DNA of 64,000 bases from a virus (Duplodnaviria > Heunggongvirae > Uroviricota > Caudoviricetes): IMG/VR virus record IMGVR_UViG_3300024518_005076; one strand, given 5' to 3'. The notes under the pieces were generated by a model. The model saw nothing but the letters and a program-made list of their open reading frames with translations, made no database searches and was not told the DNA's origin. Made by a program: the position numbers and the translations under genes. Within the stretch, counting starts at the first letter, position 1; each line of letters starts with the position of its first letter. Below are positions 15,213 to 55,439 of the stretch, one piece after another.

Positions 15213-15617
15213 TTACCAGGAAGTCTTCCGCGACATCAGAGTGATGCCAACCAGAAAACTCGGGCTGGTTCCGGCGATCGTCAGGACAGCTCGCACGTAT
15301 CGCTCTTTGCGATTATGGAACTGAGCCGTGAAGACCGTGTTGTCATCCGTGCCTGTGATCTGTGTCAGGGTGGCACCTGTAATGTCCGCCCAGGCGTCAG
15401 CAGCTTCAGGATCAGCCGAGTTTTCGTTTCGGCTTTCCTGCAGCTTAATGTCCAGAGTCGGGCTGGTTCCAGTTGCAGCACCCAAATTGACGATCACGAA
15501 GACGTCTGGACCGCAGTCCTGACAGTCGTGTGAGCTGCTGTTTGCAGTCGCCGTGGTTGCAGCAGGATCCAGAACCTGCGTGGTATTGAAGTAATTAACC
15601 ATATCAATCGAACTCAT
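15213..15617 (-). CDS. Hypothetical virion protein (134 aa)
   Basis: ORF downstream of capsid gene. Confidence 0.5.
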   Translation of the reverse strand: MSSIDMVNYFNTTQVLDPAATTATANSSSHDCQDCGPDVFVIVNLGAATGTSPTLDIKLQESRNENSADPEAADAWADITGATLTQITGTDDNTVFTAQFHNRKERYVRAVLTIAGTSPSFLVGITLMSRKTSW

Positions 15618-15632
15618 CTCGGTTCTCCTCGA

Positions 15633-16115
15633 TTACTTCCCAGAGCGGGAAGAGGGTTTTTGGCTTTCCGCGACAATCCCTCGGACGATTGATTCGATCA
15701 AGTGAACGGAAACCATTCCATTCGTGATCGCATTCTGGTGCCTCTTGGGAACTTTGTCAGTCTTCCTGACATCAAGGACGAGAAACTGATAGTCAACCTG
15801 ACCCAGCTGTTCTCGTGCCTTGTATTTCTTAAGCCACTCGTTGTGCGTGGACAAAAGGCCGTTCACGATTGTCCCCGTGAAGGACTCCGATGGAGTCACA
15901 ACATTGGGCTGATGAACGTGTTCGAAATCACCATTCCCCAGAGCAACAACCTTCCGCTTTCTGCCCTGGTACATCCGATCTTCAGGCGACCAGCTCGAAT
16001 GCTGACCCAGTTGAAGTGTGACTTCGTAAAAGCCGCTCTCTTCGCTCTCAGGCAGAAACTCGTGTGGCTTGACTTGCTCCGCACTAAGGGCTTCGATTTT
16101 CTCTGCAACAGCCAT
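15633..16115 (-). CDS. Hypothetical head protein (160 aa)
   Basis: ORF immediately downstream of major capsid gene. Confidence 0.5.
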   Translation of the reverse strand: MAVAEKIEALSAEQVKPHEFLPESEESGFYEVTLQLGQHSSWSPEDRMYQGRKRKVVALGNGDFEHVHQPNVVTPSESFTGTIVNGLLSTHNEWLKKYKAREQLGQVDYQFLVLDVRKTDKVPKRHQNAITNGMVSVHLIESIVRGIVAESQKPSSRSGK

Positions 16116-21326: not shown

Positions 21327-21504
21327 TTCTGGCTCCGTTAAATTTGTTCATCGAGACCGGAAGATCGCAGAAAAAACCGATGAATAAAAGAGCAGCCCAT
21401 CCACGGAGCCTGAGAATGGACTGCTCTCGTCAGAGAAAACGTCAACAATGGTATCTGTATGTCCATTTCCATTTCTACTGCTAGATTTCTTGACGCCATG
21501 AGAT

Positions 21505-21891
21505 TTGCTGGTAGATTGCCCAGTCATATTCATTTCTCAAACCCAGAAAGCATCCATGGACAAATCCAACTGCCAGATCATGGAAGACGCCGCCCGATCC
21601 AGAATGGAAGACTTATACCCGGAACTTCTTGAGGACTGGCACCCTGCTGAGATTCAGCTCGAAAACGTGCAGGTCATTGGAGATCCGGGAGGAAACGACG
21701 CCAGTATTACCGTGTTTTCCGATGCTGCCCCCGGCTCAGAGTTTGTTCCCCTGCTGATCTTTACAGAGATGACAGAGTCGGGAGAATGCATCTTCCCAGG
21801 CTATCTTCAGAGTTCGAATCCACATTTTAAGACTCTCATAGGACACGCACTCAATGACCGACCTCAAATCGATCCCAGAGGGGAAGATTGA
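21505..21891 (+). CDS. Hypothetical protein (128 aa)
   Basis: First ORF of plus-strand block. Confidence 0.45.
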   Translation: MLVDCPVIFISQTQKASMDKSNCQIMEDAARSRMEDLYPELLEDWHPAEIQLENVQVIGDPGGNDASITVFSDAAPGSEFVPLLIFTEMTESGECIFPGYLQSSNPHFKTLIGHALNDRPQIDPRGED

Positions 21892-22771
21892 GACAGTTGA
21901 GATTTCCCTCTTGCGGAACAACCCGCTCAATGAGGAAATCTACGGCACCGAGGATGTCGACCCTGATCTTTTAAGGTCGATTCAAGATCACGGTGTCGAT
22001 ACGCCGATTGAAGTTCTTCCGGACGGAACTATCATCAAGGGCCACCGCAGAAAGCTGCACGCAGAAGAGGCTGGGCTTACAGAGGTCCCAGTTATTGTCC
22101 GCCACGAGCTGAACTCTCCGGAAGAGGTTGGCTTCGCTCTGATCGAAGACAATCGCCACCAGAGAAACAGGACGAATATACAGAAGGTGCGTGAAATCAT
22201 GTACCTGACAGGGATGCTCCAGACCCAGAACAGAATCCGCAAGGCTACGGGGCTTCCTGTTTATGAGGCTGATGCCCATACGGACGAAGAACTTATGGAG
22301 CTTTCCGGGATGAGCCGGGAGAGCTACGAGCAGGTTGCCAGTCTCACCGAAAGCTATGCAGCCAGGTTTGGATCGTCAGCATCTCCCCAGGATGTGGCCT
22401 GTGATCACATCGGAGTCAGCAAAAAGACGTTCATGCAGGGACAGAATGCCCTAAAGACAGCAGAGGCCTGGCGGAGTGCTGGAAACGACAAAAAGGCCGA
22501 CCAGATCGAAGAGGCTCTCCATAAGGGTATCTCAACTGGATATCAGGTCGCCAAGAAGATCGGTCAGCCCGGCAAGAGGAGTGAGAAGAAAGTAATCAAG
22601 GCTAAGGCCAGCATAGAGTCGGTCATTCTCACTCTTAAGAGTATGACGGCGGCACTTCACAAGGCTCGCGTCGCCATTCCAGAATCACTGCGTGATCAGC
22701 TCGACACCATCATCAATAAAATCAATAGCATGAGGGAAGAACTTGAAAAGTCCGAACTCGACAATACTTGA
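21854..22771 (+). CDS. ParB-like nuclease domain protein (305 aa)
   Basis: N-terminal ParB/Srx pattern incl. 'IIKGHRRKLHAEEAGLTEVPVIV'; immediately precedes a DNA methyltransferase (common phage ParB-MTase pairing). Confidence 0.7.
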   Translation: MTDLKSIPEGKIETVEISLLRNNPLNEEIYGTEDVDPDLLRSIQDHGVDTPIEVLPDGTIIKGHRRKLHAEEAGLTEVPVIVRHELNSPEEVGFALIEDNRHQRNRTNIQKVREIMYLTGMLQTQNRIRKATGLPVYEADAHTDEELMELSGMSRESYEQVASLTESYAARFGSSASPQDVACDHIGVSKKTFMQGQNALKTAEAWRSAGNDKKADQIEEALHKGISTGYQVAKKIGQPGKRSEKKVIKAKASIESVILTLKSMTAALHKARVAIPESLRDQLDTIINKINSMREELEKSELDNT

Positions 22772-25022
22772 GGGCGACAGCCTGCAAGTACTCAAAGGCC
22801 TGCCTGATAACTCATTCCAGTGCTCCGTAAGCTCGCCTCCTTACTGGAATTTGCGCAACTATCAAGTCGATGGACAGATAGGGCTTGAGCCAACCGCACG
22901 CGAATTCATCCAGAATCTCGTATCTGTTTACTCAGAACTAAAGAGGGTTCTCCATCCGTCTGGTATTGCCTGGATTAACATAGGCGACAACTACGCCGGT
23001 GGAGGAAACAAGCGAGGCAAGGGTAGTCCGATATCCAGCAAACAGTCCAGTAATGCCGGATGCACTGGCCAGCTTGCGGATGTGCCAATAGTAGAAGATC
23101 TTCCACGGAAGAACATGAATGGAATGCCATGGAGATTTGCCTTTGCAATGCAGGATGACGGCTGGGTCCTCCGAGATGCGATAATTTGGCAGAAAAAGAA
23201 TCCGATGCCTACGAGCCAAAAAGATAGATGTACGAACTGTTACGAGTACATCTTTCAGTTCACGAAGGGTCCAAAGTACTTCTTTGATATGGAGTCTGTG
23301 AGAGAGCCTGCCAGATATGGAGCTGGGGAGAACTTTCGGAGTTCGTCATATCTCAATGATAAGTCTCACAACAACAGCCAAGACCGGTCAGGATCGACCG
23401 AAGGAGGGATTCCGGGCAAGGGTGGAACGCGAGTGCCTAGGAACATCAGAAGCTGGGCAACCCAAGGCTATAAAGGTGCTCACTTTGCTTGTGTTGACGA
23501 GGAAACCCAGTGCTTGACCAAAGAAGGATGGAAGTCTCAAGATCAAATTAAGCCGGGTGATGTCGCCGCCCAGTACAACATGGAGAGCGGCCTCTTGTCC
23601 TGGGCTGAAGTTGAAGACGTAGCGAGATACGATGTTTCTGACCAAGACATGGTTTCTGCCGAATGCCGTGACTTGTCAATGCTTTTGACTCCTAACCACA
23701 GAACGATAATCTCCAGAAGAAGATCGAGAGGAAAAGGCCATCACCCTCCGACCATAATCGAAGCTGAGAATCTTAGTGATGGCCACAGAATACCAGTCTC
23801 TGCCGACTGGGATGATGGCGATCATGATCAAACCATGGGAGGGGTAGAGTGGGCAGAACTGATAGGATGGTACGTTGCGGAAGGGTACGAAAACAAGAAA
23901 TCGTGGTCTGTGGATATATATCAAAGCAGATCAGCAAATCCGGAAAAGGTCGAGAGGATTCGGCATCTTCTGGATTACGTGGATGCCGAGTACGAAGAGA
24001 CTCAATCTGAGAGGAAATACAAAAATCGCACATGCAGCATGTCTTCATTCAGAATAACTGGTCACGCGGCCATAAAAATAAGAAGCATGGTCCCAGGGAA
24101 AAGGCTTTCTTGGTCTTATATGGGGCTGTCAGCAGAAGAGATGAGGGCTCTTGTTGCTGGACTTATTGCTGGAGATGGACACATTCGGCCAGATGATGGC
24201 CGGGTGTGCTTTATCCAGAAGTCGGACCACTGTATCGACTTGGTTCAAGCAATGGCTGTTAGGCTGGGATATGCTGTAAAGATCACAAAATCCCCTTCAA
24301 CATGGAGAATGTACCTGACTGAAAAAAGATACATTTCTCTTCGTGGTACGAATGGAAGTGGCAGGAATATATCAACAAAGAAATATTCCGGAGTTGTGTG
24401 GTGTCCAAAACTACCCCATGGAACCTGGGTTGCTAGGAGGAATGGACGAGCATTCATAACTGGGAATACTTTTCCAATTTCGCTCCCTCTATGGTGTATT
24501 ACGGCCAGTGCTCCGAAAGCAGGCGTCTGTGCTAAATGCTTCACGCCATACAAGCGAGTAGTCGAAAGCATCCGCAGGGCGACCCGTCCGGGAGAAAACA
24601 CCAAGATCAAGATGCCGGACGGATGGGACACAGGAGAGGGCGGGCACGGCAGTTTTCATCGGGAAGGCAGAGAGAAAGGCCAGTACCGTGACACAGCAGA
24701 GATTGGAAACAGAGATCCGCAACGTCACGTCACAGAAACAACCACCGTTGGGTGGGAACCTGGATGCACTTGCGATTGCGGAACTGATTTCCCAGCAATT
24801 CTGGATCCCTTCTCAGGGGTCGCCACTACAGGACTGGCCTGTTCGCGCCTCCGATGCCACTACGTGGGAATCGAACTTAATCCAGAGTATGCACAGATGT
24901 CGCGGGACAGAATCAAGGACGATCTGATCAAGGGATTCGATCCGAACCCACATGCCGTGAACCTTAATCTGGGAACTGGTATCGACTTATGTCAGGAAAA
25001 CGTGTCACAATTTAATTACTAA
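22743..25022 (+). CDS. N6/N4 DNA methyltransferase (beta-class: SPPY catalytic motif first, FSGVATTG SAM motif last) interrupted by a LAGLIDADG intein
   Basis: 'SVSSPPYWNL' near N-terminus; 'ILDPFSGVATTG' near C-terminus; 'GAHFA'+'TFPISLP' flank the insert and rejoin to match the HPAVFP motif of the second MTase at 33448. Confidence 0.8.
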   Translation: MKSPNSTILEGDSLQVLKGLPDNSFQCSVSSPPYWNLRNYQVDGQIGLEPTAREFIQNLVSVYSELKRVLHPSGIAWINIGDNYAGGGNKRGKGSPISSKQSSNAGCTGQLADVPIVEDLPRKNMNGMPWRFAFAMQDDGWVLRDAIIWQKKNPMPTSQKDRCTNCYEYIFQFTKGPKYFFDMESVREPARYGAGENFRSSSYLNDKSHNNSQDRSGSTEGGIPGKGGTRVPRNIRSWATQGYKGAHFACVDEETQCLTKEGWKSQDQIKPGDVAAQYNMESGLLSWAEVEDVARYDVSDQDMVSAECRDLSMLLTPNHRTIISRRRSRGKGHHPPTIIEAENLSDGHRIPVSADWDDGDHDQTMGGVEWAELIGWYVAEGYENKKSWSVDIYQSRSANPEKVERIRHLLDYVDAEYEETQSERKYKNRTCSMSSFRITGHAAIKIRSMVPGKRLSWSYMGLSAEEMRALVAGLIAGDGHIRPDDGRVCFIQKSDHCIDLVQAMAVRLGYAVKITKSPSTWRMYLTEKRYISLRGTNGSGRNISTKKYSGVVWCPKLPHGTWVARRNGRAFITGNTFPISLPLWCITASAPKAGVCAKCFTPYKRVVESIRRATRPGENTKIKMPDGWDTGEGGHGSFHREGREKGQYRDTAEIGNRDPQRHVTETTTVGWEPGCTCDCGTDFPAILDPFSGVATTGLACSRLRCHYVGIELNPEYAQMSRDRIKDDLIKGFDPNPHAVNLNLGTGIDLCQENVSQFNY
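23490..24467 (+). mobile_element. Intein (about 326 aa) with double-motif LAGLIDADG homing endonuclease; boundaries approximate (N-junction Cys at 23490 or 23511; C-terminal Asn 24465 followed by Thr)
   Basis: Starts Cys after 'GAHFA'; LAGLIDADG-like 'LIGWYVAEGY' and 'LVAGLIAGDGHI'; ends '...FITGN' + 'T'. Confidence 0.6.
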
Positions 25023-40004: not shown

Positions 40005-40802
40005 ATGCAACGTATGCCGAAAGACCGGCGCAGACAGTCTACAAAACAGGGAGGCCGCAAACCCGATGCGGGCATTGTCCCCGCAATTGCGGTCAAGATT
40101 GAGGCGGACGGAAACGGTAAACATGTCCGCCGGTATCGCGAGGGATCCCGCGTCCTAACATCAACCGGAATTATCCCGCCAGCCGTTGGGCGCAGATTGT
40201 TGTTGGAGGCTGGATCTGGCGATTCTGACGCCAGCCTAACGGCGCGGGAAGACGCGCAGACATCAAACCGCAATGAACTGCGCGTTGAGGTGAACGGACA
40301 TCGGCGCAGAACTGCGATTGCGATTCAACGCAAACTATCGGATATGGGGATCCCGCATTCAATCACCAGTCATCCAGACGATTGCCGCGCGGATTGTTTC
40401 GGTTGGGTTGTTCGGGGATCCGATAATGCCCGCCAGGCTTTTCTATTCTGGTGTCAACGTTCGCGGAAAACTCGCGGGCAATTCCAGGCCGATACCGAGC
40501 TTGCGACACCACATGGAACCGGCACGGACGGACATCAAACCCCAGTTGGCAAGATGCAAGCGCGGGATCCCAACCGGCCGCGAGTGACTACGGACGGAAA
40601 TGCCATCGCGGCAAATGCCCGCCAGGCCGCAAGATCTCAAACAATGCGGATTGAGGCTGAACGCAGAGCGAACAACCGGCGCAAAGCGGACGGATTGCGC
40701 GAGGCGGAGAAAACCGCGAGGCGCGAGGCGAAGCGTACGGAAATCACAATCCAGGCTATCCGCAACGGAGGTTTGCCGGATTGCTTGATCTTCCAGGGAT
40801 GA
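40005..40802 (+). CDS. Arg-rich basic hypothetical protein (about 265 aa)
   Basis: ORF in GC-rich island; CAGGAGAC RBS. Confidence 0.45.
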   Translation: MQRMPKDRRRQSTKQGGRKPDAGIVPAIAVKIEADGNGKHVRRYREGSRVLTSTGIIPPAVGRRLLLEAGSGDSDASLTAREDAQTSNRNELRVEVNGHRRRTAIAIQRKLSDMGIPHSITSHPDDCRADCFGWVVRGSDNARQAFLFWCQRSRKTRGQFQADTELATPHGTGTDGHQTPVGKMQARDPNRPRVTTDGNAIAANARQAARSQTMRIEAERRANNRRKADGLREAEKTARREAKRTEITIQAIRNGGLPDCLIFQG

Positions 40803-40827
40803 TACTCGCGACAATTCAACACGTCCT

Positions 40828-40864
40828 GCCCGCGCTGGCATGTGATCAGCGCGGGCATTTTTCG
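40828..40864 (+). terminator. Rho-independent terminator
   Basis: Perfect 10-bp stem GCCCGCGCTG/CAGCGCGGGC, 9-nt loop, followed by ATTTTTCG. Confidence 0.7.
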
Positions 40865-41103
40865 TATCGGGACACAATGCCCAACCGGCAACCTGGACAG
40901 CGTACGCAATCCACCTGGACAACACGCAACCGGCAACAATCCACACTCGCGACCTGGATCCCGTTCGTTCATGTGAACGGCACAATTACTGAACGCGCGA
41001 TCGTTCGTATCAACAATGGACCTGAACATACGTCAGGTTGTGGACACGCGGAGAGCGCCGGCTCCGGCGCAGATAAGATAGATCCAGATTCCTATGAGAT
41101 AAC

Positions 41104-41135
41104 CCCTCATGGGAACGAAACCCCCTCATGGGAAC
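41104..41135 (+). promoter_or_regulatory. Two half-copies CCCTCATGGGAAC immediately upstream of ATG 41142
   Basis: Direct observation. Confidence 0.55.
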
Positions 41136-41141
41136 CAGGTC

Positions 41142-41312
41142 ATGAATCTCACCGCAGTTCAGTACGAATCAATCTGTGCTCTGATCGCGTGTCGTGGGAA
41201 AGAATCTGCCATCAAACAGGTATCACACTTCCTGGATGGAGAAGATCTGGATGCGGCTAAGGCCTTTATCGACAAGGCTGATGTCGATGAAGATACCAGG
41301 CATATCAAATAG
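41142..41312 (+). CDS. Small hypothetical protein (56 aa)
   Basis: ATG directly after a CCCTCATGGGAACC element. Confidence 0.4.
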   Translation: MNLTAVQYESICALIACRGKESAIKQVSHFLDGEDLDAAKAFIDKADVDEDTRHIK

Positions 41313-41332
41313 TCCCTCATGGGAACGAAACC

Positions 41333-41470
41333 ATGCTTACAGCAGAACAGATCAGCTTGATCATCGACTCTGAGGCAGACAGGATTAATCCTGTCCATCA
41401 CCCTGAGTGTGAATGCTATGAATGCGTCTGCGAGTACGAATCTATGGCGCAGTTTGAAGAGAACAACTAG
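41333..41470 (+). CDS. Small Cys-rich protein (45 aa; below ORF-track cutoff)
   Basis: ATG 7 nt after a CCCTCATGGGAACGAAACC element. Confidence 0.3.
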   Translation: MLTAEQISLIIDSEADRINPVHHPECECYECVCEYESMAQFEENN

Positions 41471-41584
41471 ACCCCTCGTGGGAACCGATGCTCCCGGTGC
41501 GACCGACGATATGACTCATGGGAACCAGGCGATGGGTTCCCTTCCTGTTCCCTCATGGGAACGTAATTTTCAGGAGACGTAGCG

Positions 41585-42118
41585 ATGTTTCGCAAGATTC
41601 TGACTCTCGGCTTAGGGGCAGCGTGGTCCTTCCTTCAGGCTAATCAGGACAATCTGTCCTCCTTCGCCAAAGGTTACACGGCTGCAATGCTTCGCGTGGC
41701 ATGTGGCCAAGTCACAGTGAAAGATGCACAGGAAGCGGTCAATGACCGGTACACGTGGATCACAGTAGTGATGAATGGGGAAATGGTCGCGTTCCTGCCT
41801 GTCCCTCATGGGACTCCGGCGGAAGATGCCGTGCAGTTCGCTTGGGAGAATACCCAGCATGGGAACCGATGGTATTGGGACACCAGGCCAGGCGTAAAGG
41901 TTGCTCCGACTCACGTGGGGACAATCCGATCGACAATGGTCGGGGACTCATTCATCTATGACGGAAAACGGTATCTCGTCGCCCCTGCAAGCTTCCCGTG
42001 TGTCGATAGCATTCCACTGGTCGGGATGACTCCGGAATTGCTGGGTGCAGACTCCAGCGGGTCGCTCGTTCGCGATCGTAATGGTGTCGAATGCTTCGCC
42101 TGTCTGGGTGAAGACTAG
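41585..42118 (+). CDS. Hypothetical protein (177 aa)
   Basis: CAGGAGAC RBS after a conserved element. Confidence 0.55.
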   Translation: MFRKILTLGLGAAWSFLQANQDNLSSFAKGYTAAMLRVACGQVTVKDAQEAVNDRYTWITVVMNGEMVAFLPVPHGTPAEDAVQFAWENTQHGNRWYWDTRPGVKVAPTHVGTIRSTMVGDSFIYDGKRYLVAPASFPCVDSIPLVGMTPELLGADSSGSLVRDRNGVECFACLGED

Positions 42119-42320
42119 AAGCACGAGGTGTGACCGAAAATCATGTTTGTGGGAACAGAGTGCCGGTCGTCCCTGTCATTGAGGGAACGCAAACGCAATG
42201 TTCGCAGGTCAATAACAGACCGCATTGCTGCGACCGGCACGGATCCGCAGGTTTGCCGGACCCCTGCGGTGTCAGCTTGATACTCTCATTTGAGAGGGAT
42301 CCAATTCCGGCTCATTTTAA

Positions 42321-42385
42321 CCCTCATGGGAACGGAGGCGATGCCGTTCCCCTTAATCCCTCATGGGAACCAGGCGATGGTTCCC
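42321..42385 (+). promoter_or_regulatory. Two tandem copies of conserved element CCCTCATGGGAAC(C); second copy is the full palindromic form CCCTCATGGGAACC-AGGCGAT-GGTTCCC just upstream of the RBS
   Basis: Direct observation; same element at 43067..43094, 45545..45572, 41514..41562. Confidence 0.6.
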
Positions 42386-42405
42386 CAATCAGGAGACGAT
42401 GCAGT

Positions 42406-42786
42406 ATGAGAATCGACGGTATTGCCATAGGGCGCGAATCGGCTGACAAGATCAGCTTGCATCTGGATCGAGTCCACCAAATAGGTGAGGAACTCTCTGT
42501 CGAGGAATTCATCGAAGCGATTCGTGGGAACCTGAGTGTTGAACTTCTGGTTTCAGGGGAACGAGTATTCGTCAATTGTGCAGACACTCCGTGCATGACA
42601 ACGAATGCCGACCTGAATCGGGAATTCGGGGACAGAAACCTCTTCTTTGCCGTGCTGCAGGAATCCCCGAGATCGTATCTCTTCTGTGACGATCCAGAGG
42701 ATGGGATGCACTGTCACTTGATTTTCCCGGATTACGATGCGGCGGCTGAGGCGGCGGCTGGATTGTTGAATCCGATCATCTACTAG
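42406..42786 (+). CDS. Hypothetical protein (126 aa)
   Basis: CAGGAGACGATG context after full element at 42358..42385. Confidence 0.45.
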   Translation: MRIDGIAIGRESADKISLHLDRVHQIGEELSVEEFIEAIRGNLSVELLVSGERVFVNCADTPCMTTNADLNREFGDRNLFFAVLQESPRSYLFCDDPEDGMHCHLIFPDYDAAAEAAAGLLNPIIY

Positions 42787-43066
42787 CGCCTCGCGAGAAC
42801 CCGATCAATCCCTGGCTGACGACACAGTTGGAAGATCGGTGGCGTCGGGAAACCATCGGACAAGAACCTAAAGCAGTCCCTCGCCTGACTCCCGCTGACT
42901 GAACCGAGACGAAGATTGTTACCGACGTATGACATAACCCCTCATAGGAACAGGATCCAATCCCTTTCCCCCCGGCTCTCACCAGATGGCACTGTGAGCC
43001 TAACACTGCCGATGATAAAGCGGCCTGGTGGGAGAGTGATCTGGATTCCTGTTCCCTTTCTTTAAC

Positions 43067-43094
43067 CCCTCATGGGAACCTGGCGATGGGTTCC
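43067..43094 (+). promoter_or_regulatory. Full copy of element (CCCTCATGGGAACC-TGGCGAT-GGGTTCC) 30 nt upstream of gene start 43125
   Basis: Direct observation. Confidence 0.6.
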
Positions 43095-43124
43095 TTCCCT
43101 TCATGAGAACCAGGAGACGATGCG

Positions 43125-43592
43125 ATGACTGAGACCAAAACCCGTGAATGGGCACTCGGTGATGAAATCTGCGACATGCACTACGGGTTGCCAGATCACA
43201 CCTGGGATCGCGGGTCGCAAATTCCGATCACAACGCGGAATCACGTTCGTTTGCAGTACCTGAACGACGCGCACGATCTGGTCGAAAAAGCTTTGGAGTC
43301 TTCTGGGTCACTGTCTTGTTTTTACACAAACAAGATGGCCGTTGTCGTCGGTGTTCCAGTTTCGGATGCTTGGTACAAAGTGGCGTACTCTTATGACTGC
43401 CACACGTTCGGGATGTTTGAGTTTCAGCCCATTCCCGTTCAGGAGCCTGAGCCGGAACCCGAGAAGCCCAGGAAGACGATCTTTACCACTGCCGAGATCG
43501 CCAAGCTTCTCAAGGTTGCGCCTCGAACCGTGTCAAAATGGGAAGAGTATGTATATCGATGCACGATTGAAGAACTGGAAGACAACGCATAA
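43125..43592 (+). CDS. Hypothetical protein with C-terminal HTH (155 aa)
   Basis: CAGGAGACGATG context after element at 43067..43094; 'FTTAEIAKLLKVAPRTVSKW' HTH. Confidence 0.55.
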   Translation: MTETKTREWALGDEICDMHYGLPDHTWDRGSQIPITTRNHVRLQYLNDAHDLVEKALESSGSLSCFYTNKMAVVVGVPVSDAWYKVAYSYDCHTFGMFEFQPIPVQEPEPEPEKPRKTIFTTAEIAKLLKVAPRTVSKWEEYVYRCTIEELEDNA

Positions 43593-43807
43593 TCCCCTCA
43601 TGGGTCGGGATTCCCCTGTCTGACATAGTCCCTGCGGTCATCACCCGCAATGCTGCCCTACGAAGCCTGCAATCGCTTTCTGTCTCTGCTCGCATCCGAG
43701 ACAGGGCTACGCTGTGCATACCGGGCCGTGCATAAAGATGGCAACGCATACTATTCAGACAGGGAGATCTCGACCCATGAACTAAGACCCTCATAGGAAC
43801 CCGAGCG

Positions 43808-44053
43808 ATGCACGATTATGAGATATCAGTGCCGACAGACTCCACAGAATCAGAGTGGATGGTTTCTCAGGTCACACACGCCAGAAGCCTCCATGATGCA
43901 TCAGTCTATATGGCCCGGTATCTAACCAGATTCCGGGTTCGGAGTGTCTCTCACAATGAGACATTTGACTACGGAGTCATTCATCATCCGAATCATGGGT
44001 ATGCGTACCCTTCACTCAAGGCAGTCATATGTCCAGAGAAAACAACGCTATGA
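43808..44053 (+). CDS. Hypothetical protein (81 aa)
   Basis: ATG 8 nt after CCCTCATAGGAAC. Confidence 0.4.
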   Translation: MHDYEISVPTDSTESEWMVSQVTHARSLHDASVYMARYLTRFRVRSVSHNETFDYGVIHHPNHGYAYPSLKAVICPEKTTL

Positions 44054-44396
44054 AAACCTTTGAGATCCAAGTTCCCATCTCTGATGGCGAGTGGGTAACG
44101 TGGGATACGTGTGAATCGAAGACTACAAATGGGCCTAAGGGGTTGGCGGGCCGATTCTGCCTCAAGAAATTCCGCATCATTGATGTTGAGACTGGGGAAT
44201 CTGAAGAATACGAAATGAAGACTCTTCCGTGGTAGGCCCAATCCCTCATAAGAACCAGGGCGTGACGGAACAGTCGACGTCCTTCGCGAGAGCATGTGTA
44301 GGATAGGTGGGAGGTGAAGATGCCAGGCCGCAAGACCTGTCTGAACCGTCCTTGAAATACCACCCGTGCTCTTTCCCTTAAATCAGGAAAACAGTC

Positions 44397-44666
44397 ATGG
44401 AAAATCAGTACCACGCCAAAATGACAGAACTCAGACATCAGGTTTTCGAACTGGCTAATGAAATGGCACTGGATGATCTGGGTCACGTTGCCACAACTCT
44501 ACACCACGCATCCAACACCATCACAAGAGCCATAAACTCTCTCGAATCGGGAAGTGTCGATCTTCAATGCCTCATAGAAGATGGACTTCGCGGACTAGGT
44601 GGAATTATTGCGCTGGAACACTCACAGGAACACGACCATGTCCAGAATCATCGGCAAAGTGATTGA
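44397..44666 (+). CDS. Hypothetical protein (89 aa)
   Basis: ORF. Confidence 0.45.
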   Translation: MENQYHAKMTELRHQVFELANEMALDDLGHVATTLHHASNTITRAINSLESGSVDLQCLIEDGLRGLGGIIALEHSQEHDHVQNHRQSD

Positions 44667-44838
44667 CAGTGGATCCGACAATGCCTGGCCCACGACAGCC
44701 GCCAGTGACATTGTCTTCGGTGTTATCTTCGGATCAGCCCTTGTGATGATCCTGGGTTTCGGGATCGCGAGTCTGATCCTCAGGCTTCCCTTGTAGGAAA
44801 TAGTGGGTAGTTTTTCTCACAACACAGGAGACAATCCA

Positions 44839-45021
44839 ATGCCCGAATTCGAATTTGTGGCCCACGAGACCCGCAGGCAGAAAGTCAGGTACTGGGTTGT
44901 TGCTGACAGCCTGGAAGAGGCGACCGAGCTTGCTGAAAGGGGCGAAACGGACAACGAAGAGGACGTGGAATGCCTAGCCGTCTACAGCAGAAGCGTGAAG
45001 CACATCAAGCCTTGGAAATAA
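44839..45021 (+). CDS. Small acidic protein (60 aa)
   Basis: ORF with AGGAGACAATCCAATG context. Confidence 0.35.
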   Translation: MPEFEFVAHETRRQKVRYWVVADSLEEATELAERGETDNEEDVECLAVYSRSVKHIKPWK

Positions 45022-45544
45022 AACACACTGGGTTAGATTTGGCCATCCGGCTCAGTGATGACGACACGATCGACGAAGTTGACCTGTTGGAGATGGTCGC
45101 CGTCCTTGCGGTTGACTAGCCGATGTCCGCGCTGGAACCGATGTCCAATCTTGGAAGACAGACCATGCCGTTGACCTCTCGCACACCGATTAGGAGACAG
45201 ACCATGATCGGAAAAGTCATCAAGAGCGGTGGCGGTCCATACCGCGAACGTAACAGATTCGCCGCAGATGTAGTCATAGGAACGACTTGCGGCGTATTCC
45301 TCCTCATGGCTCTCACTGCCGCCACGATCTGGATTAGCGCCAGCCTTGGCGCTGGAGGAAGCTTTACTACTGTACGTGTTCAGTAGTAAAGTGCCCAATA
45401 CGGAACCAGAGGTCCCACTCGGTAACGAGTATATCTGTGTAAACTAAAGGCCAATTGTTCCAAAAAGCTGAGTTAGATCTGGCCATCCGGCTCAGCCCCG
45501 TGGCGGGCAGGCAGTGTGTTGCTGTCCTGTCCGCCACAATTTTA

Positions 45545-45572
45545 CCCTCATGAGAACCAGGCGATGGTTCTC
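45545..45572 (+). promoter_or_regulatory. Full copy of element (CCCTCATGAGAACC-AGGCGAT-GGTTCTC) upstream of gene start 45606
   Basis: Direct observation. Confidence 0.6.
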
Positions 45573-45605
45573 TTTACCCCTCGTCAGAAACCAAGGAGAC
45601 ACGCG

Positions 45606-45851
45606 ATGAATGCTGCACTCAGAACAATCGATGCGATCGACGAACAGCTCGGAATTGCCTCTGTGGGGATCGAGTCCCTGCACGAAGGCAAATACCGGGA
45701 CAAGATGCTCAGGGATGTCGTTCTGCTCCGCGAAACCCTGGCTGCTGCGAGGTGCTTTGAGCACTCTGTGGCCAGCAAGAGCACGAACATCGACTGGAAG
45801 TTCCTGCGACAGCAGCAGGCCGAGGCTCGGGAACTCTGTCACGCTGGATAG
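45606..45851 (+). CDS. Hypothetical protein (81 aa)
   Basis: AAGGAGAC RBS after element at 45545..45572. Confidence 0.45.
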   Translation: MNAALRTIDAIDEQLGIASVGIESLHEGKYRDKMLRDVVLLRETLAAARCFEHSVASKSTNIDWKFLRQQQAEARELCHAG

Positions 45852-45889
45852 GGCGTGATCACTTCCAAAACCTCAAAAGGAGACAAGTC

Positions 45890-46987
45890 ATGGATAAGAT
45901 TCAAGAAATGACACCTGAGCAAGAACAGCAAATGGTTGAGTTCAGGGAAGAGTACCTTCAGATTGGACTGTCTACCGAACCCGCCAACAGAGAACTGGCA
46001 GAACAGGCCATTCAGTCAATCAGATCCAAGGCCCACAAGGAGTGCTCATCCTTCATGTGGTTCGACGGGATAGCGACAGCAGAATTATTCTTAAATATCG
46101 GGGCCAATCTCTGGGACAATCTCGGGGACAATCTCTGGGCCAATCTTAGTGACAATCTCGGGGCCAATCTCGGGGACAATCTCTGGGCCAATCTCAGGGC
46201 CAATCTCAGGGCCAATCTCTGGGCCAATCTCGGGGACACTCTCTGGGCCAATCTTAGTGACAATCTCGGGGACAATCTCTGGGACAATCTCGGGTCCAAT
46301 CTCGGGGCCAATCTCAGGGACAATCTCAGGGACAATCTCGGGTCCAATCTCGGGGCCAATCTCAGATTACACAGTCAGCTCGAAGGGCAAATGGAGTATT
46401 GGATTGCGTGGTACATGTTTCCTCATAAATTCCTGAGGAACATTCATTCGGATTCCGACATGGAACATTTGAATGAGTGGGACTCAGTATTCCGATCGTG
46501 CTGCTGGTGGTGGCCATACGAAAACACCACAATTGTTGCCGAAAGGCCCGCCTCGATCGTCAGAAACGAAGAGGGATTGCTGCATAATGAATCTGGACCT
46601 GCAATCTCGTGGCGAGATGGTTGGGAACACTTTGCCTTGGAAGGCGTTAATCTGGATCGTCAAATCGTCATGGCTCCTGAGTCTCAATCGGTACAACAAT
46701 TGGAATCAGAAGAAAACGAAGAGGTGCGTAGAATCAGAATCGAGCGATTTGGGGTTCTGCGGTATCTGGAAGAGTCTAACTCATCAGTCGTAGATACTCG
46801 TCGCAACGACATCGAAGCCACTTTTGAAATACTGGCCAATACGCCAAATGGCCAGCGATTAGTCACACACTGTCCCTCTACGGGAAGGCGTTATTTCCTT
46901 TCTATCCCAGAGCAGGTCGAAACCTGCGAACAGGCACAAGCTGTCCTGTGGGATGATCACGACATGAGAATTATAGGGAGAACGTAA
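45890..46987 (+). CDS. Protein with about 22 tandem tetrapeptide repeats ([AD]NL[GWRS]) followed by a Trp-rich globular domain (365 aa)
   Basis: 12-nt DNA tandem repeat 46101..46366 stays in frame; AAAGGAGAC RBS. Confidence 0.6.
   Translation: MDKIQEMTPEQEQQMVEFREEYLQIGLSTEPANRELAEQAIQSIRSKAHKECSSFMWFDGIATAELFLNIGANLWDNLGDNLWANLSDNLGANLGDNLWANLRANLRANLWANLGDTLWANLSDNLGDNLWDNLGSNLGANLRDNLRDNLGSNLGANLRLHSQLEGQMEYWIAWYMFPHKFLRNIHSDSDMEHLNEWDSVFRSCCWWWPYENTTIVAERPASIVRNEEGLLHNESGPAISWRDGWEHFALEGVNLDRQIVMAPESQSVQQLESEENEEVRRIRIERFGVLRYLEESNSSVVDTRRNDIEATFEILANTPNGQRLVTHCPSTGRRYFLSIPEQVETCEQAQAVLWDDHDMRIIGRT
46101..46366 (+). repeat. Tandem 12-bp repeat array (about 22 units: gccaatctctgg / gacaatctcggg variants) inside a CDS
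   Basis: Directly visible periodicity. Confidence 0.85.
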
Positions 46988-48662: not shown

Positions 48663-48842
48663 ATGCTCGTACTCAGTAGAAAGCCAAATGAACAGATCGT
48701 GATTGCGGATGGCGAAATCGTGATCACGCTACTTGAAATCAGAAAAGGATCAGTCAGACTGGGGATCGAAGCACCTCGTGATATCCCGGTTCACAGGCGA
48801 GAGGTGCAGACAATCATTGAATCTGAGGAGAAGGTGGCATGA
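48663..48842 (+). CDS. csrA: CsrA/RsmA-family RNA-binding regulator homologue (59 aa)
   Basis: 'MLVLSRKPNEQIVIADGEIVITLLEIRKGSVRLGIEAPRDIPVHRREV' tracks CsrA consensus incl. GxxxRIGI/APxxxxVHRxE; AAAGGAG RBS. Confidence 0.75.
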   Translation: MLVLSRKPNEQIVIADGEIVITLLEIRKGSVRLGIEAPRDIPVHRREVQTIIESEEKVA

Positions 48843-52225: not shown

Positions 52226-53416
52226 GTGCTACACGAAATTATTCCTGCGACCCCGCGATTAGTCGAAAAGCTTGTAGCGAGAGAGAGGGATCCCGCAAGA
52301 ACAGATCCACTACTGTGGGAAAAATCAGAAGACACTGAGATGTATATAGAAATAGCATCTCGCGAGACGGCCAAGCTGGTTTCCAGCGTAGATGTCATGC
52401 AGAGGAAAATCAGGGCGTTAAACGCAACACAGAAGCCATCTTTCGGGAAAGCTCTAAGAGATTCTGCATATACTGCCTATAACGACGCAAAGCATCAATT
52501 GGATGAGGCTTACTACAACCTAACCTCGTTCAATATACCCGAACGTCGCAGCAGCCCGGTCGCTCGGACCAACAACACCAAGAAGATTTCGTATCTGAGC
52601 AACTCCGACTTCATAGAGCAGGAAAAGGTGATGATACACCGCTCATATAAGACGGTGTTCATCACAACAGAACCAATCGTAATCGAAAACATCAACCTTG
52701 GTGCTTTTGAGATTCATGTCAGGCCACGTGTTGACTCGACAGCAGAGGCATACGCACTCAACCCCAACCCGGCAATCAGCAATCCAGTCGTTACCCACCC
52801 GAATGTGAAGAATAACACTGTCTGCCTGGGCGAAGGTAAAGATGCATACAACAAGGCCGTTATGGAAGGGCGTCTTTGCGATGCACTGCAAATTGCCTTA
52901 TCCGTCGTGAGAAATTACGGGTGGAGAAATCCCTACCTGTCTATTAGCGAATGGTTTGGAGTCAACTGTGGATTCTGTGGCCACTTGAATACACCAAATA
53001 GAACATTTCAGTGCATCGACTGCAAAGTAAAGGGATGCAAAACCTGCGCTTACACAGGGACTGCTCGAAGATGCTACGAGTGCCATGAGTACAGGCTGGC
53101 CAATCCTCCAGACGAGTGCTACAGGTGCAGTCGAGAGGCTCATAATGAATGCCCGGACTGCAAGAAGAAAGTCTGCGGGAGATGCTGGATCGAAGATTCC
53201 TGCAATCTCTGCTATCGCAGAAACAATCAAGCCTGCAACAGGTGCGAGCGTGTCACCCGGATAGACACGTGGCCAGATCCGTGTGCTGGATGTGAGGTAC
53301 GTTTATGTGCTCTATGTATGGAGCACGGAGTTTTGTGTCCTACGTGCTATCAGGGTCACCTCAATGAGAACCCGGATGTGGCACGACTTATTGGGAGTCT
53401 GCGAGATGACGACTAA
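52226..53416 (+). CDS. E2-like (UBC-fold) protein with C-terminal array of about 12 CxxC pairs (396 aa); GTG start
   Basis: 'VVTHPNVKNNTVCLGEG' = HPN motif with Cys 7 residues downstream (H at 52796, Cys codon 52823..52825); AGGAGACC RBS; paralogue of 55498..56847. Confidence 0.6.
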   Translation: MLHEIIPATPRLVEKLVARERDPARTDPLLWEKSEDTEMYIEIASRETAKLVSSVDVMQRKIRALNATQKPSFGKALRDSAYTAYNDAKHQLDEAYYNLTSFNIPERRSSPVARTNNTKKISYLSNSDFIEQEKVMIHRSYKTVFITTEPIVIENINLGAFEIHVRPRVDSTAEAYALNPNPAISNPVVTHPNVKNNTVCLGEGKDAYNKAVMEGRLCDALQIALSVVRNYGWRNPYLSISEWFGVNCGFCGHLNTPNRTFQCIDCKVKGCKTCAYTGTARRCYECHEYRLANPPDECYRCSREAHNECPDCKKKVCGRCWIEDSCNLCYRRNNQACNRCERVTRIDTWPDPCAGCEVRLCALCMEHGVLCPTCYQGHLNENPDVARLIGSLRDDD

Positions 53417-54539
53417 CAACAAACCTGTGTTCTCTCCGTCTGCATGGCAGAAATACATTCTGCTTCGAGACATGGGGGGCACTGAGATTTCCGCGATGGC
53501 GATCTGCTTTGACCCCGACGAACCGCTGAAAATCAACGATCTCTACGTGCCCGAGCAAACATGCAGCTCGGCCTACACTGAGTTCGATGACGACGCCTTG
53601 AGTGAGCTGTACGAGATGTATGGCCCGCAGATCGACCCGGATGACGACACCAAGCTCACCGGTCTGCATCCTTATCAGTTCAGCCGCATCTGGCTGCACA
53701 CTCACCCAGGTCAGAGCGCAAAGCCTTCAGGGACCGACCACACCACATTCAAGGAGCGGTTCGGGCCTCCAGACTGGGCAGTTATGTTCATTCTGGCACG
53801 TGGGGGACAAACCCATTGCGAGCTTAAGGTTCGCAGTGAATCCGGTCTTGTTAACGCTCATGTCAGGCACGATTCCAGTGAGTGGGTCGACTGGAGCATG
53901 CCGTGCGTTCCGGTGAATCATGATGAATTGAAGGAAATCTACAAGAAGAAAGTAAAAACCAGCCACGCGGCGGTGTCTTACGGCGGTGCGTGGAATGGCG
54001 GACACTCCTACACCACTCGTGGGGGCAAGCCAGGATACTACGCCAATGGAAAGTGGACCGAGTATGGGACTCAAGGGAAGTCCAACCAGACCGGCACAAA
54101 GAAGATTGAAGTTAACCAAAGAAACCAGAGAGAGCCACTCGACTTTGGCGACCTGGAATGGAGATACAAGCGTGAAGACCACTTCATGAAGCAGTATCTC
54201 CAGGATGTTTACGTGGACATCAAGACATGGGGAAATGCTGCCGACGTCATGAAGAGAGATGACTTTGAAGAAGTTTGGGCTCCGGACGACCAGGACTTCG
54301 CAATGTGGATGGACCAGAAGTGGCTCATGGGTCGAGATTGCAAAATCGAATTCATCGACGAGAGCGAAGATGGAGAAGAGACCATATGGGAATGCTCTGC
54401 CCAGGAAGCGCAGATGCTTGTCCAGAAGAAAGTCATCGAGGACACGGACTTCGGAGAGTTTTTCGGTGCAGACAAAAAGGATGACGAAGACGATGAGGAA
54501 TTGGATTTCTCTTTCCCTGGTCTGCACATGTGGCAGTAA
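53406..54539 (+). CDS. JAB/MPN (JAMM) metalloprotease-domain protein with about 200-aa C-terminal extension and acidic tail (378 aa)
   Basis: JAMM signature 'HTHPGQSAKPSGTDH' (HxHx7Sx2D) at 53697..53741 with upstream Glu; start overlaps stop of E2 gene (coupling). Confidence 0.65.
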   Translation: MTTNNKPVFSPSAWQKYILLRDMGGTEISAMAICFDPDEPLKINDLYVPEQTCSSAYTEFDDDALSELYEMYGPQIDPDDDTKLTGLHPYQFSRIWLHTHPGQSAKPSGTDHTTFKERFGPPDWAVMFILARGGQTHCELKVRSESGLVNAHVRHDSSEWVDWSMPCVPVNHDELKEIYKKKVKTSHAAVSYGGAWNGGHSYTTRGGKPGYYANGKWTEYGTQGKSNQTGTKKIEVNQRNQREPLDFGDLEWRYKREDHFMKQYLQDVYVDIKTWGNAADVMKRDDFEEVWAPDDQDFAMWMDQKWLMGRDCKIEFIDESEDGEETIWECSAQEAQMLVQKKVIEDTDFGEFFGADKKDDEDDEELDFSFPGLHMWQ

Positions 54540-54584
54540 GGCTGGCTGTAACCGCTTAATGTTTCTCTAACGGAGGTGGAAGGT

Positions 54585-55439
54585 ATGCCGTCACTTAACA
54601 GGTTTTCTCGACAGGAGAGTATTGTCCCGGTTGAGAAGAAGACTCCGGTGACAATCATCGGGGTCGGAGCTATTGGACTTCAGCTCGCGAAGTTCATGGC
54701 CTCAATGGGAATCCCTCAAATCAGGTTGATCGACTTTGATGTAGTCGAAGATACCAACATCACTACGCAGGGATACACCGGATCGCAGCTGGGATTGCCC
54801 AAGGTGGAAGCCGCAAGGGATTCCATCCATGCCATCGACGCGGACATCAAGGTCATCGCAGAAAATGACCGATGGAGACCGAAAACCAAGATTGATGGGG
54901 TCGTGTTCTGCTGCGTCGACTCGATCAAGGCTCGCGAGTGCATCTGGAAAGGCATCAAGAATAAGGTGGATTTCTTCTGTGATGCCAGAATGCTCGGTGA
55001 GGTCTTCCATGTGTACGCATGGATCAAAGGTGCCCCTCACGAAGACTACGAGCAGACGCTGTTCGCAGAAGAAGAGACGATCGCAGGCCAGTGTACCGCA
55101 GCAGGTACGATCTACTGTGCTGGCATGGCCGCAGGTGCCATGTGTCACCAGTACACGCGATGGATCAGGGGTGTTCTGCCTCCCGATGTGAGCTGGTCCT
55201 GTGCTTTGCTGTCCAGCGAGCTTTCAGTCATCTCACGGGACTTCGTTGCTCCGCCAGAGGATACTGGAATGCTGGTCAAGGAAGTAATCGTCGAGAAGCC
55301 AGAAGAGGTTGCGACTCCTGTGGAAGAAGAGGCAGAAGAAGCCTCAGCTGAACCAGAACCGGTGCCCGCTCTGGCGGACCCTGTGGACGACTATGACGAT
55401 GATGACTGGGACAGAGAACGAGAAGAGGACCGCTGGTAA
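54585..55439 (+). CDS. E1-like ThiF/MoeB-family adenylyltransferase (284 aa) with acidic C-terminal tail
   Basis: 'RFSRQ', Rossmann 'VTIIGVGAIGLQLAKFMASMG', 'LIDFDVVEDTNITTQG', conserved Cys region 'AGQCTAAG'; GGAGGTGGAAGG RBS. Confidence 0.7.
   Translation: MPSLNRFSRQESIVPVEKKTPVTIIGVGAIGLQLAKFMASMGIPQIRLIDFDVVEDTNITTQGYTGSQLGLPKVEAARDSIHAIDADIKVIAENDRWRPKTKIDGVVFCCVDSIKARECIWKGIKNKVDFFCDARMLGEVFHVYAWIKGAPHEDYEQTLFAEEETIAGQCTAAGTIYCAGMAAGAMCHQYTRWIRGVLPPDVSWSCALLSSELSVISRDFVAPPEDTGMLVKEVIVEKPEEVATPVEEEAEEASAEPEPVPALADPVDDYDDDDWDREREEDRW

Follow-up and report, generated by a model that had tools for sequence, protein, structure and literature searches.

What kind of signal stands, many times over and always in the same orientation, in front of the small early genes of an uncultivated marine tailed phage with a genome of ~99.3 kb? 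The locus that raises this question is part of a 64,000-nucleotide stretch of viral DNA (IMG/VR record IMGVR_UViG_3300024518_005076), here called the window, and the signal itself is a 13-mer, CCCTCATGGGAAC, repeated between positions 41104 and 45590. An earlier note on this DNA had described the array and read its elements either as a promoter/operator recognised by a dimeric regulator or as a transcribed 5′ stem-loop. The element is real, sharply defined, and common within a phage group. The reading preferred here, which is held tentatively, is that of a compact, phage-group-specific promoter-like signal that would define the 5′ end of each early unit, with both the transcription start and the enzyme postulated from the sequence.

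A Contiguous 13-Nucleotide Block on One Strand

With at most one mismatch, the 13-mer has 13 matches where shuffled sequences lead one to expect 0.09; with at most two, the matches rise to 22, the expectation being 2.07, and a count of 22 was reached in no shuffle. Every one of these matches is on the + strand. The array itself comprises 16 copies (41104, 41123, 41314, 41473, 41513, 41550, 42321, 42358, 42939, 43067, 43098, 43595, 43788, 44243, 45545, and 45578), all of them intergenic in a stretch (41100–45610) of which 34% is non-coding (P ~3e-8). Neither the shuffles nor the comparison of coding with intergenic DNA weakens the array that the earlier note had placed upstream of small early genes, and every motif position that it listed holds a copy, within 0–2 nt. 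Copy 43595 reads CCCTCATGGGTCG, the degenerate copy 45578 reads CCCTCGTCAGAAA, and tandem copies are spaced 15–37 nt apart. Outside the array, the readable genome holds nothing better than two mismatches, save four weak copies at 49.6–51.3 kb and one at position 15713 of L006, a part of the genome beyond the window.

An alignment of 33 sites from five sources (the window, its strain variant L001, and the metagenomic phage fragments L070, L021, and L032) places the conserved positions in a contiguous, asymmetric block of 13 nt alone, with flanks that show just a preference for A three bases upstream. Conservation within the block is inflated in this alignment, since the sites were chosen by their match to the 13-mer, and its real result concerns the flanks: no second conserved block at promoter-like spacing is present among the 33 sites.

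The gap between a copy and the next start codon is 6–7 nt for three array copies and 14–200 nt for the rest, and three copies precede non-coding RNA. The half-sites that had been noticed before the genes at 41142, 41333, and 43808 do lie there, ending 6, 6, and 7 nt before the ATG. The copies and the features next to them are, in order:

40827–40857 (+): intrinsic terminator with a T-run, ~240–250 nt before the first core copies.
41104–41116 and 41123–41135 (+): two tandem cores, the second followed by ATG 41142 with no separate Shine-Dalgarno sequence.
41314–41326 (+): core starting 1 nt past the upstream stop codon, before ATG 41333.
41473–41485 (+): core variant CCCTCGTGGGAAC, starting 2 nt past the stop codon at 41470.
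41513–41541 (+): core GACTCATGGGAAC with a hairpin at 41520–41541 (GGGAACC / AGGCGATG / GGTTCCC).
41550–41562 (+): core ending 22 nt before ATG 41585, with a CAGGAGAC Shine-Dalgarno sequence between them.
42321–42351 (+): core with an 8-bp hairpin variant at 42328–42351 (GGGAACGG / AGGCGATG / CCGTTCCC).
42326–42362 (+): 37-nt unit ATGGGAACGGAGGCGATGCCGTTCCCCTTAATCCCTCATG, found twice in L001, on either side of an extra 117-aa gene; a junction of cassette gain or loss.
42358–42385 (+): the sole exact 28-mer, core plus hairpin (42365–42385), followed by a Shine-Dalgarno sequence and ATG 42406.
42939–43066 (+): core variant CCCTCATAGGAAC with a rod-like structured RNA, in which GGAAC of the core pairs with a 3′ GUUCC; CUUUCUUUAA tail.
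43067–43110 (+): core with a hairpin (43074–43095, G-U closing pair) and a second core, variant CCTTCATGAGAAC, at 43098–43110, which directly abuts CAGGAGAC and ATG 43125.
43595–43780 (+): core variant CCCTCAT-GGGTCG with a 176-nt structured RNA, whose 5′ GGGUCGGGAU pairs with AUCUCGACCC.
43788–43800 (+): core variant before ATG 43808, without a Shine-Dalgarno sequence.
44243–44396 (+): core variant CCCTCATAAGAAC and a leader with a mimic of the L1 stalk of 23S rRNA (44289–44372), then ATG 44397.
45500–45541 (+): strong terminator-like hairpin (−30.6 kcal/mol, z −5.5), then AAUUUUA; it ends 5 nt before copy 45545.
45545–45590 (+): core CCCTCATGAGAAC with a compensated hairpin (45552–45572, GAGAACC/GGTTCTC), followed by the degenerate core (45578–45590), a Shine-Dalgarno sequence, and ATG 45606.
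49577, 49718, and 51320 (CCCTGATGGGAAC type), and 51161 (CCCTCATGGGTCG) (+): outlying weak copies, all overlapping coding sequence.

Possible relics within coding sequence had been suggested for two outlying copies. Weak copies do overlap coding sequence there (49577 and 51161), but not all outlying copies can be relics, because a gene starts 37 nt downstream of 49718.

RNA Helices That Begin at a Fixed Base

The copies form two classes. In class A, GGGAAC forms the 5′ arm of a helix; in class B, the bases behind it are unstructured all the way to the start codon. Small hairpins are formed by five of the 16 copies (41513, 42321, 42358, 43067, and 45545), with free energies of −10.9 to −13.6 kcal/mol. 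The five full 28-mers of the earlier note survive as these five hairpin copies, although the exact 28-mer occurs once only, at 42358, and the others are variants: those at 43067 and 45545 are within three mismatches of it, that at 41513 has a 1-nt loop insertion, and that at 42321 has the 8-bp stem. Copy 41550 has GTT upstream, and the resulting GTTCCC-TCAT-GGGAAC is itself foldable. The class B copies lack a Shine-Dalgarno sequence and have the ATG 6–8 nt on at 41123, 41314, and 43788, as well as in three cases in L021 and L032; otherwise, CAGGAGAC follows and then the ATG.

Across the window and L070, the loop, (A)GGCGAU(G), stays constant while the stem varies: C-G becomes G-C at pair 7, G-C becomes A-U at pair 2, and at pair 1 G-C becomes G-U. 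Because these changes are compensatory, and because the G-U pairs exist in the + sense alone, the pairing is attributed to RNA of the + strand. Two further copies open larger structures, namely a rod of 111 nt (42946–43056, +; −52.9 kcal/mol, z −5.4) right after copy 42939 and the RNA of 176 nt (43602–43777, +; −78.9 kcal/mol, z −5.7) right after copy 43595, neither of which matches an Rfam family. In the latter, GGGAAC is replaced by GGGTCG and the partner is correspondingly CGACCC. Three unrelated RNA structures (small hairpin, rod, and 176-nt RNA) thus begin their 5′ arm at the G after CCCTCAT. The transcribed 5′ stem-loop proposed in the earlier note is supported for five of the 16 copies, and in a wider sense for the two that open larger structured RNAs, but not for all copies. 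A scan for intrinsic terminators passes only one of the five small hairpins (41520–41541, with a T-rich tail), the tails of the others holding 1–4 U in 8 nt.

Rfam covariance models run over 40500–46000 gave a sole match, to a large-subunit rRNA fragment at 44289–44372, and no known ribozyme, leader, CRISPR repeat, or processing motif. This 84-nt segment (+ strand) matches positions 2129–2212 of bacterial 23S rRNA, helices 76–78, with 57.6 bits (E ~1e-15). It has its own closing stem and lies within the non-coding gap 44236–44396, 46 nt after motif copy 44243. The L1-stalk mimic, placed in the leader of gene 44397, may serve the phage as a decoy for ribosomal protein L1 or as a sensor of it. 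It is absent from genuine phage records, the blastn matches being rRNA contaminants, and its interest may exceed that of the motif.

The 13-Mer as a Proposed Promoter-like Signal

That the 13-mer defines the 5′ ends of transcripts is suggested by the combination of its single orientation, its position before genes and RNAs alike and after terminators, and the helices that begin at a fixed base. The recognised part would be CCCTCAT together with the loosely A/T-rich stretch just upstream, and RNA would start at the first G of GGGAAC. This start is preferred because it is the sole position that keeps every downstream Shine-Dalgarno sequence in the transcript; a start 6–8 nt after the motif would cut off those at 43098, at 45578, and at position 1270 of L001. 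In some units, the AUG would then follow GGGAAC after 6–8 nt, or would be preceded by the CAGGAGAC Shine-Dalgarno sequence; in others, GGGAAC would pair with a downstream GUUCCC to give a 5′-terminal stem-loop of 21–24 nt or the helix that closes a longer structured RNA. Helices of this kind would shield the 5′ end and may also guard the unit against read-through, and copies in the same orientation would allow homologous recombination to add or remove gene cassettes.

Promoters of the T7 type offer a parallel for this arrangement. They consist of a contiguous block of ~23 nt that runs into the transcript, with a GGG(A) start, and the T7 gene 10 leader begins with a 5′ stem-loop, GGGAGACCACAACGGUUUCCC. 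The element likewise is a contiguous block with a putative GGG(A) start, whose first ~21 transcribed nucleotides would be foldable (GGGAACCAGGCGAUGGUUCCC). However, the block is 13 nt long here, and no gene for a single-subunit RNA polymerase is detectable in the ~99 kb genome.

Several points weigh against a promoter. A length of 13 nt is short for the T7 type, and the block does not fit sigma-70, sigma-54, or extracytoplasmic function (ECF) promoters. Tandem copies at distances of 15–37 nt are unusual for promoters. No open reading frame (ORF) of the genome has a Pfam or NCBIfam match to an RNA polymerase or a sigma factor. Lastly, the inverted repeat of the 176-nt RNA reaches into TCAT, 4 nt beyond GGG on the upstream side, and, judging from this pairing, that RNA may at least include the motif.

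The search for the recognising factor covered L113, L102, the window, and L006, which make up the whole contig. No ORF in these four parts matches a sigma family or a family of RNA polymerases, single-subunit T7-like enzymes included, and the DxDGD motif was not found across the extended genome (L102, L113, and L006). A giant virion polymerase of the N4 type is likewise lacking among the ORFs, the largest being of 1378 aa (in the tape-measure position) and 1166 aa (tail-fibre-like). The hairpins also differ from the hairpin promoters of N4, which have a stem of 5–7 bp and a 3-nt loop upstream of the start, whereas the loop here has 5–8 nt and the position of the stem is downstream of the block. 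A bolder version of the promoter-like reading, which we regard as rather unlikely, is a promoter of undescribed transcription specificity, read by an unrecognised protein that redirects the host RNA polymerase or by a new small phage polymerase. Its signal of ~13–17 nt would start RNA at GGGAAC, would also launch decoy RNAs such as the L1-stalk mimic, and would double as a module that moves early genes between phages.

Terminators, Repeats, and Known Promoter Classes around the Array

Between the terminator at 40827–40857 and the first copies, 40863–41100 is filled by non-coding DNA with phage-specific direct repeats, CAACCGGCAAC and ACCTGGACA. The TARA fragment L032 has the same order of terminator, non-coding repeats, and motif copies, but its repeat sequences differ. 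In the corresponding pre-array regions, L032 carries CCATTTTGYAC..CTATCGG four times (540–760), and L021 a repeat of ~30 nt (60–320). These pre-array repeats, which are different in each phage, are likely phage-specific operators or iterons. Another repeat, of 28 nt (CTGRGTTAGATYTGGCCATCCGGCTCAG, 93% identical), occupies two non-coding gaps, at 45028–45055 and 45468–45495 (+); it is itself a hairpin (CTGAG...CTCAG), and its second copy stands just before the terminator at 45500.

A scan of the + strand of 41100–45610 with the sigma-70 consensus found no site at 9/12 or better, and nothing else is conserved in the intervals between the motif copies and the next genes. By eye, sigma-70-like sites are seen elsewhere in the phage (TTGACG-16-TAGATT at 21489–21516, and at L006 15678), so that the host probably uses ordinary promoters and the motif would be a different class of signal.

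A number of known signals were tried on the motif and rejected. By eye, an ECF −35 element (GGAAC-N16-CGT) has inconsistent spacing, a sigma-54 promoter would have no −12 element, and a sigma-28-like promoter (TAAA-N15-GCCGATAA) fits the hairpin copies alone. As a −10 element with leaderless mRNAs, the motif would cost several units their Shine-Dalgarno sequences, and as a −30 element resembling a MotA box, it would place starts within genes. A CsrA sponge leaves CCCUCAU unexplained, and the hairpin loop holds no GGA. The core sites of integron attC do not match; a hammerhead-like core lacks GAAA and has no Rfam match; a substrate of RNase P lacks CCA, and the helix is short; and the likeness of the hairpin to helix 45 of 16S rRNA is a 9-nt match that is not significant.

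Alternative Explanations

The rival that survives best places the signal in RNA rather than in DNA, and it is possible, if on balance unlikely. The element would lie on a long early transcript, either as a cleavage site between CCCUCAU and GGGAAC, which frees mRNAs and small RNAs with hairpin-protected 5′ ends, or as a signal to the ribosome or to a translational regulator, similar to the start-associated sequences (SAS) of mycobacteriophages. The strict orientation is expected from it, as are the covariation of the hairpins, with its RNA-like G-U pairs, and the participation of UCAU of the motif in the pairing of the 176-nt RNA. At least six copies, counted in the window and its relatives, end 6–8 nt before an ATG without a Shine-Dalgarno sequence, as SAS elements do (PMC3203893). 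The phage, in which no polymerase or sigma factor was found, also encodes a homologue of CsrA. On the other hand, strong terminators stand directly upstream of copies, making a single long precursor unlikely barring antitermination, and neither a known ribozyme nor a known processing motif came to light. Copies in tandem at 14–200 nt from start codons are unexplained by a ribosome signal, as are those before non-coding RNAs; since copies precede the L1-stalk mimic, the two structured RNAs, and a tRNA-like RNA in L032, a purely translational role cannot explain all of them.

The comparison with SAS and extended SAS (ESAS) in Cluster K mycobacteriophages is nonetheless a close one. The SAS consensus, GGGATAGGAGCCC, contains the core of the Shine-Dalgarno sequence, and nearly all copies lie 3–7 bp from a start codon (Pope et al. 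2011, PMC3203893). In both systems, asymmetric repeats of 13 nt with an outer symmetry of the GGG/CCC type occur in ~11–19 copies and one orientation, confined to the non-structural part of the genome and to its larger intergenic gaps, in front of unrelated genes, with a subset extended by an inverted repeat. However, the motif described here contains no Shine-Dalgarno core, and only ~40% of its copies lie that close to a start codon, others preceding RNAs. In addition, the repeat of ESAS lies upstream and shows no compensatory changes, whereas here it lies downstream, overlaps the motif, and covaries.

A second rival, which must be considered improbable, regards the 13-mer as an asymmetric operator or stoperator, i.e., a 13-bp DNA site at which a phage repressor, bound as a monomer, would stop initiation or elongation in the early region. 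Asymmetric operators are known for C1 of phage P1. The stoperators of mycobacteriophage L5 and Cluster A are asymmetric 13-bp sites as well, distributed genome-wide and specific to the immunity group (PMC3203893), and the likeness extends to the many copies in short intergenic regions and to the orientation tied to the direction of transcription. The two to four copies in tandem with which the early region opens would suit such a site, a helix-turn-helix (HTH) protein with a weak HTH_17 match is encoded inside the array (43125–43592), and ParB-like genes hint at a plasmid-prophage lifestyle. Nevertheless, the copies are gathered within 4.5 kb, with four weak outliers, and are common to divergent phage fragments; identical sites in phages with unrelated early regions would not be expected, because immunity specificity usually diverges. 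The pre-array repeats are better candidates for operators, no separate promoter was found for the sites to control, and the phage yielded no integrase or recognisable repressor, only weak HTH matches. Helices that start exactly after CCCTCAT are not explained by this reading, and the RNA-level covariation of their stems has no place in the stoperator model.

The dimeric regulator of the earlier note corresponds to a palindromic operator, GGGAACC-N7-GGTTCCC, bound on double-stranded DNA, and this is largely refuted by the sequence and very improbable. Five copies do have an inverted repeat of 7–8 bp, but the second arm is absent in 11 of the 16; the palindrome does not include CCCTCAT, the best conserved part; the orientation is single throughout; and the arms change in a compensatory way and tolerate G-U. 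The promoter half of the earlier proposal is plausible and is the one preferred here, while its dimer finds no support in an asymmetric block in one orientation, most copies of which have one arm. Four features go beyond the earlier note: copies that precede non-coding RNAs, an element common to otherwise unrelated phage fragments, its role as a boundary in gene gain and loss, and a genome with no detectable sigma factor or RNA polymerase. A selfish or neutral repeat with no regulatory role (REP- or MITE-like, or a set of recombination scars) has hardly any probability either, for copies do occur at indel junctions, where assemblies break, but they are placed with precision relative to RNA helices and to the stop codons, Shine-Dalgarno sequences, and start codons of the genes, are absent from the opposite strand, and retain the 13-mer across divergent phage fragments whose flanks are free to vary.

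Relatives and the Exchange of Gene Cassettes

Each of the three metagenomic fragments holds several copies of the 13-mer and shares with the window the motif, the hairpin with the AGGCGAT loop, and the layout in which a motif with its hairpin is followed by a second motif, a Shine-Dalgarno sequence, and an ATG. No meaningful DNA or protein similarity to the window exists otherwise. In L070, a pyrimidine linker separates the motif with hairpin from the second motif, and the loop is that of the window; the sample that yielded L070 also contains L105, a phage with 65% identity in one replication protein. The arrays of L021 and L032 open with a tandem core doublet, as at 41104/41123.

The strain variant L001 carries its extra 117-aa gene between copies 42321 and 42358, flanked by the 37-nt direct repeat, which consists of the hairpin and the next motif. 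A homologue of this gene stands behind a motif copy in L032 (E 1e-12), and a third assembly breaks exactly at the cassette junction of L001.

Scans of IMG/VR with a 21-mer, the hairpin pattern, and the tandem pattern gave no matches. The scan of metagenomes with the tandem pattern gave 90 loci, mostly unrelated tandem repeats, the relevant ones being L021, L032, L070, and L093; arrays of 33 nt among the 90 looked CRISPR-like at first sight and proved to be unrelated tandem repeats. A scan of the genomes of 185,579 species returned three coding tandem repeats only, and the element in no host or prophage. Protein-based scans of viral contigs identified L003 and L004 as relatives in the structural module, without an early region; the motif is absent from L005, a distant DUF6745 locus, and no such array is present in L108 and L109, large contigs encoding DUF6745 homologues. 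A literature search for the motif sequence found nothing.

Among characterised elements, the promoter-early stem-loop (PeSL) cassettes of T4-type phages, which combine a sigma-70 promoter (−35/−10) with an AT-rich upstream element and a stem-loop (Arbiol et al. 2010, PMC2839356; Comeau et al. 2014, PMC4122927), share the overall design. In both, the early region is plastic and rich in small ORFan genes, a short, composite motif recurs between the stop codon of one such gene and the Shine-Dalgarno sequence or start of the next, and an expression signal is joined to a stem-loop at a variable relative position (here, five small hairpins and two long-range helices). Recombination between copies yields gene indels, for which the present array offers one case (L001) and the assembly break. 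The differences are that the signal here is a single 13-nt block without a sigma-70 consensus, that the stem-loop includes the conserved block and looks 5′-terminal rather than terminator-like (one in five with a T-rich tail), and that some units drive non-coding RNAs. By analogy, the element may be regarded as a PeSL-like regulatory cassette, gene shuffling included, without the sigma-70 promoter.

Genome and Gene Content

Proteins identical to those of the window are found on a 99,307-bp ENA contig and on several contigs of 30–60 kb from other assemblies. The ends of three independent assemblies agree within ~150 bp, at ~26.27 kb to the left of the window and at window position 72.9–73.0 kb, and are probably the physical ends of the genome. 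The assembly of one sample additionally splits at 33.5 kb and 41.09 kb, probably marking a strain-variable stretch. Isolated phages give no DNA match, and only distant ones for the portal and DUF6745 proteins. The − strand of the window encodes the portal, the capsid, and the 1378-aa protein; after these structural genes comes a long block of + strand genes, mostly without a family match, in which the longest ORF of the window does not exceed 760 aa. The proteins downstream of the motif copies have no Pfam or PHROG matches. Besides the 1166-aa protein, a large protein of 743 aa was recognised, as the large terminase.

The CsrA homologue is encoded at 48663–48842 (+; Pfam E 5e-21). The extended ribosome-binding context CAGGAGAC, which is common to many early genes, resembles a CsrA site, and both together could constitute a translational switch from early to late genes.

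Several other genes are worth recording. A DUF6745 protein (45890–46987, +) contains a long run of 12-nt repeats (four residues, xNLx type) at 46100–46360; it has 339 homologues at E ≤1e-20, which contain repeats of this type as well and turn up on several contigs of ~100 kb that are phage-like. At 53283–55439 (+), a JAB-like protein adjoins a ThiF/E1-like protein, and the distant relative L108 has E2, JAB, and ThiF together, an arrangement suggestive of a phage-borne module for ubiquitin-like conjugation. A 759-aa DNA methylase (22743–25022, +) holds an inserted LAGLIDADG domain, either an intein or a fused homing endonuclease, and at least five more DNA methyltransferase genes are present elsewhere in the genome. 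A 298-aa protein at 61128–62024 (+) shows weak similarity to the C-terminal domain of IS110/IS116 transposases (Pfam E 1.4e-4; PHROG transposase E 1e-9), and no obvious ends of an insertion sequence flank the gene.

Beyond the window, at L006 15446–15515, lies a tRNA with the anticodon CTA (an amber suppressor, called Pyl by ARAGORN), which scores 58.5 bits against the Rfam tRNA model; this segment and L006 15700–15921 correspond to approximately window position 67.6–68.1 kb. A second tRNA is found in the same stretch (15446–15921), and between both lies a T-loop-like sequence, with no tRNA call, preceded by TTGACT-16-TAGGCT. Sequences resembling tRNA also occur in L032, directly after the motif array.

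What the Element Would Mean for These Phages

In uncultivated phages, most early regions are hard to read, as the genes are small and unassigned and no promoters can be seen. Here, a signal of 13 nt marks the early units, whether they encode proteins or RNAs, and lets them be delimited in metagenomes, where small RNAs can be found and the exchange of cassettes followed. If the signal is read by a new factor, it would be an orthogonal promoter of very compact size and would reveal a new way of seizing transcription; if it acts at the RNA level instead, the start-associated sequences of mycobacteriophages would gain an independent second example.

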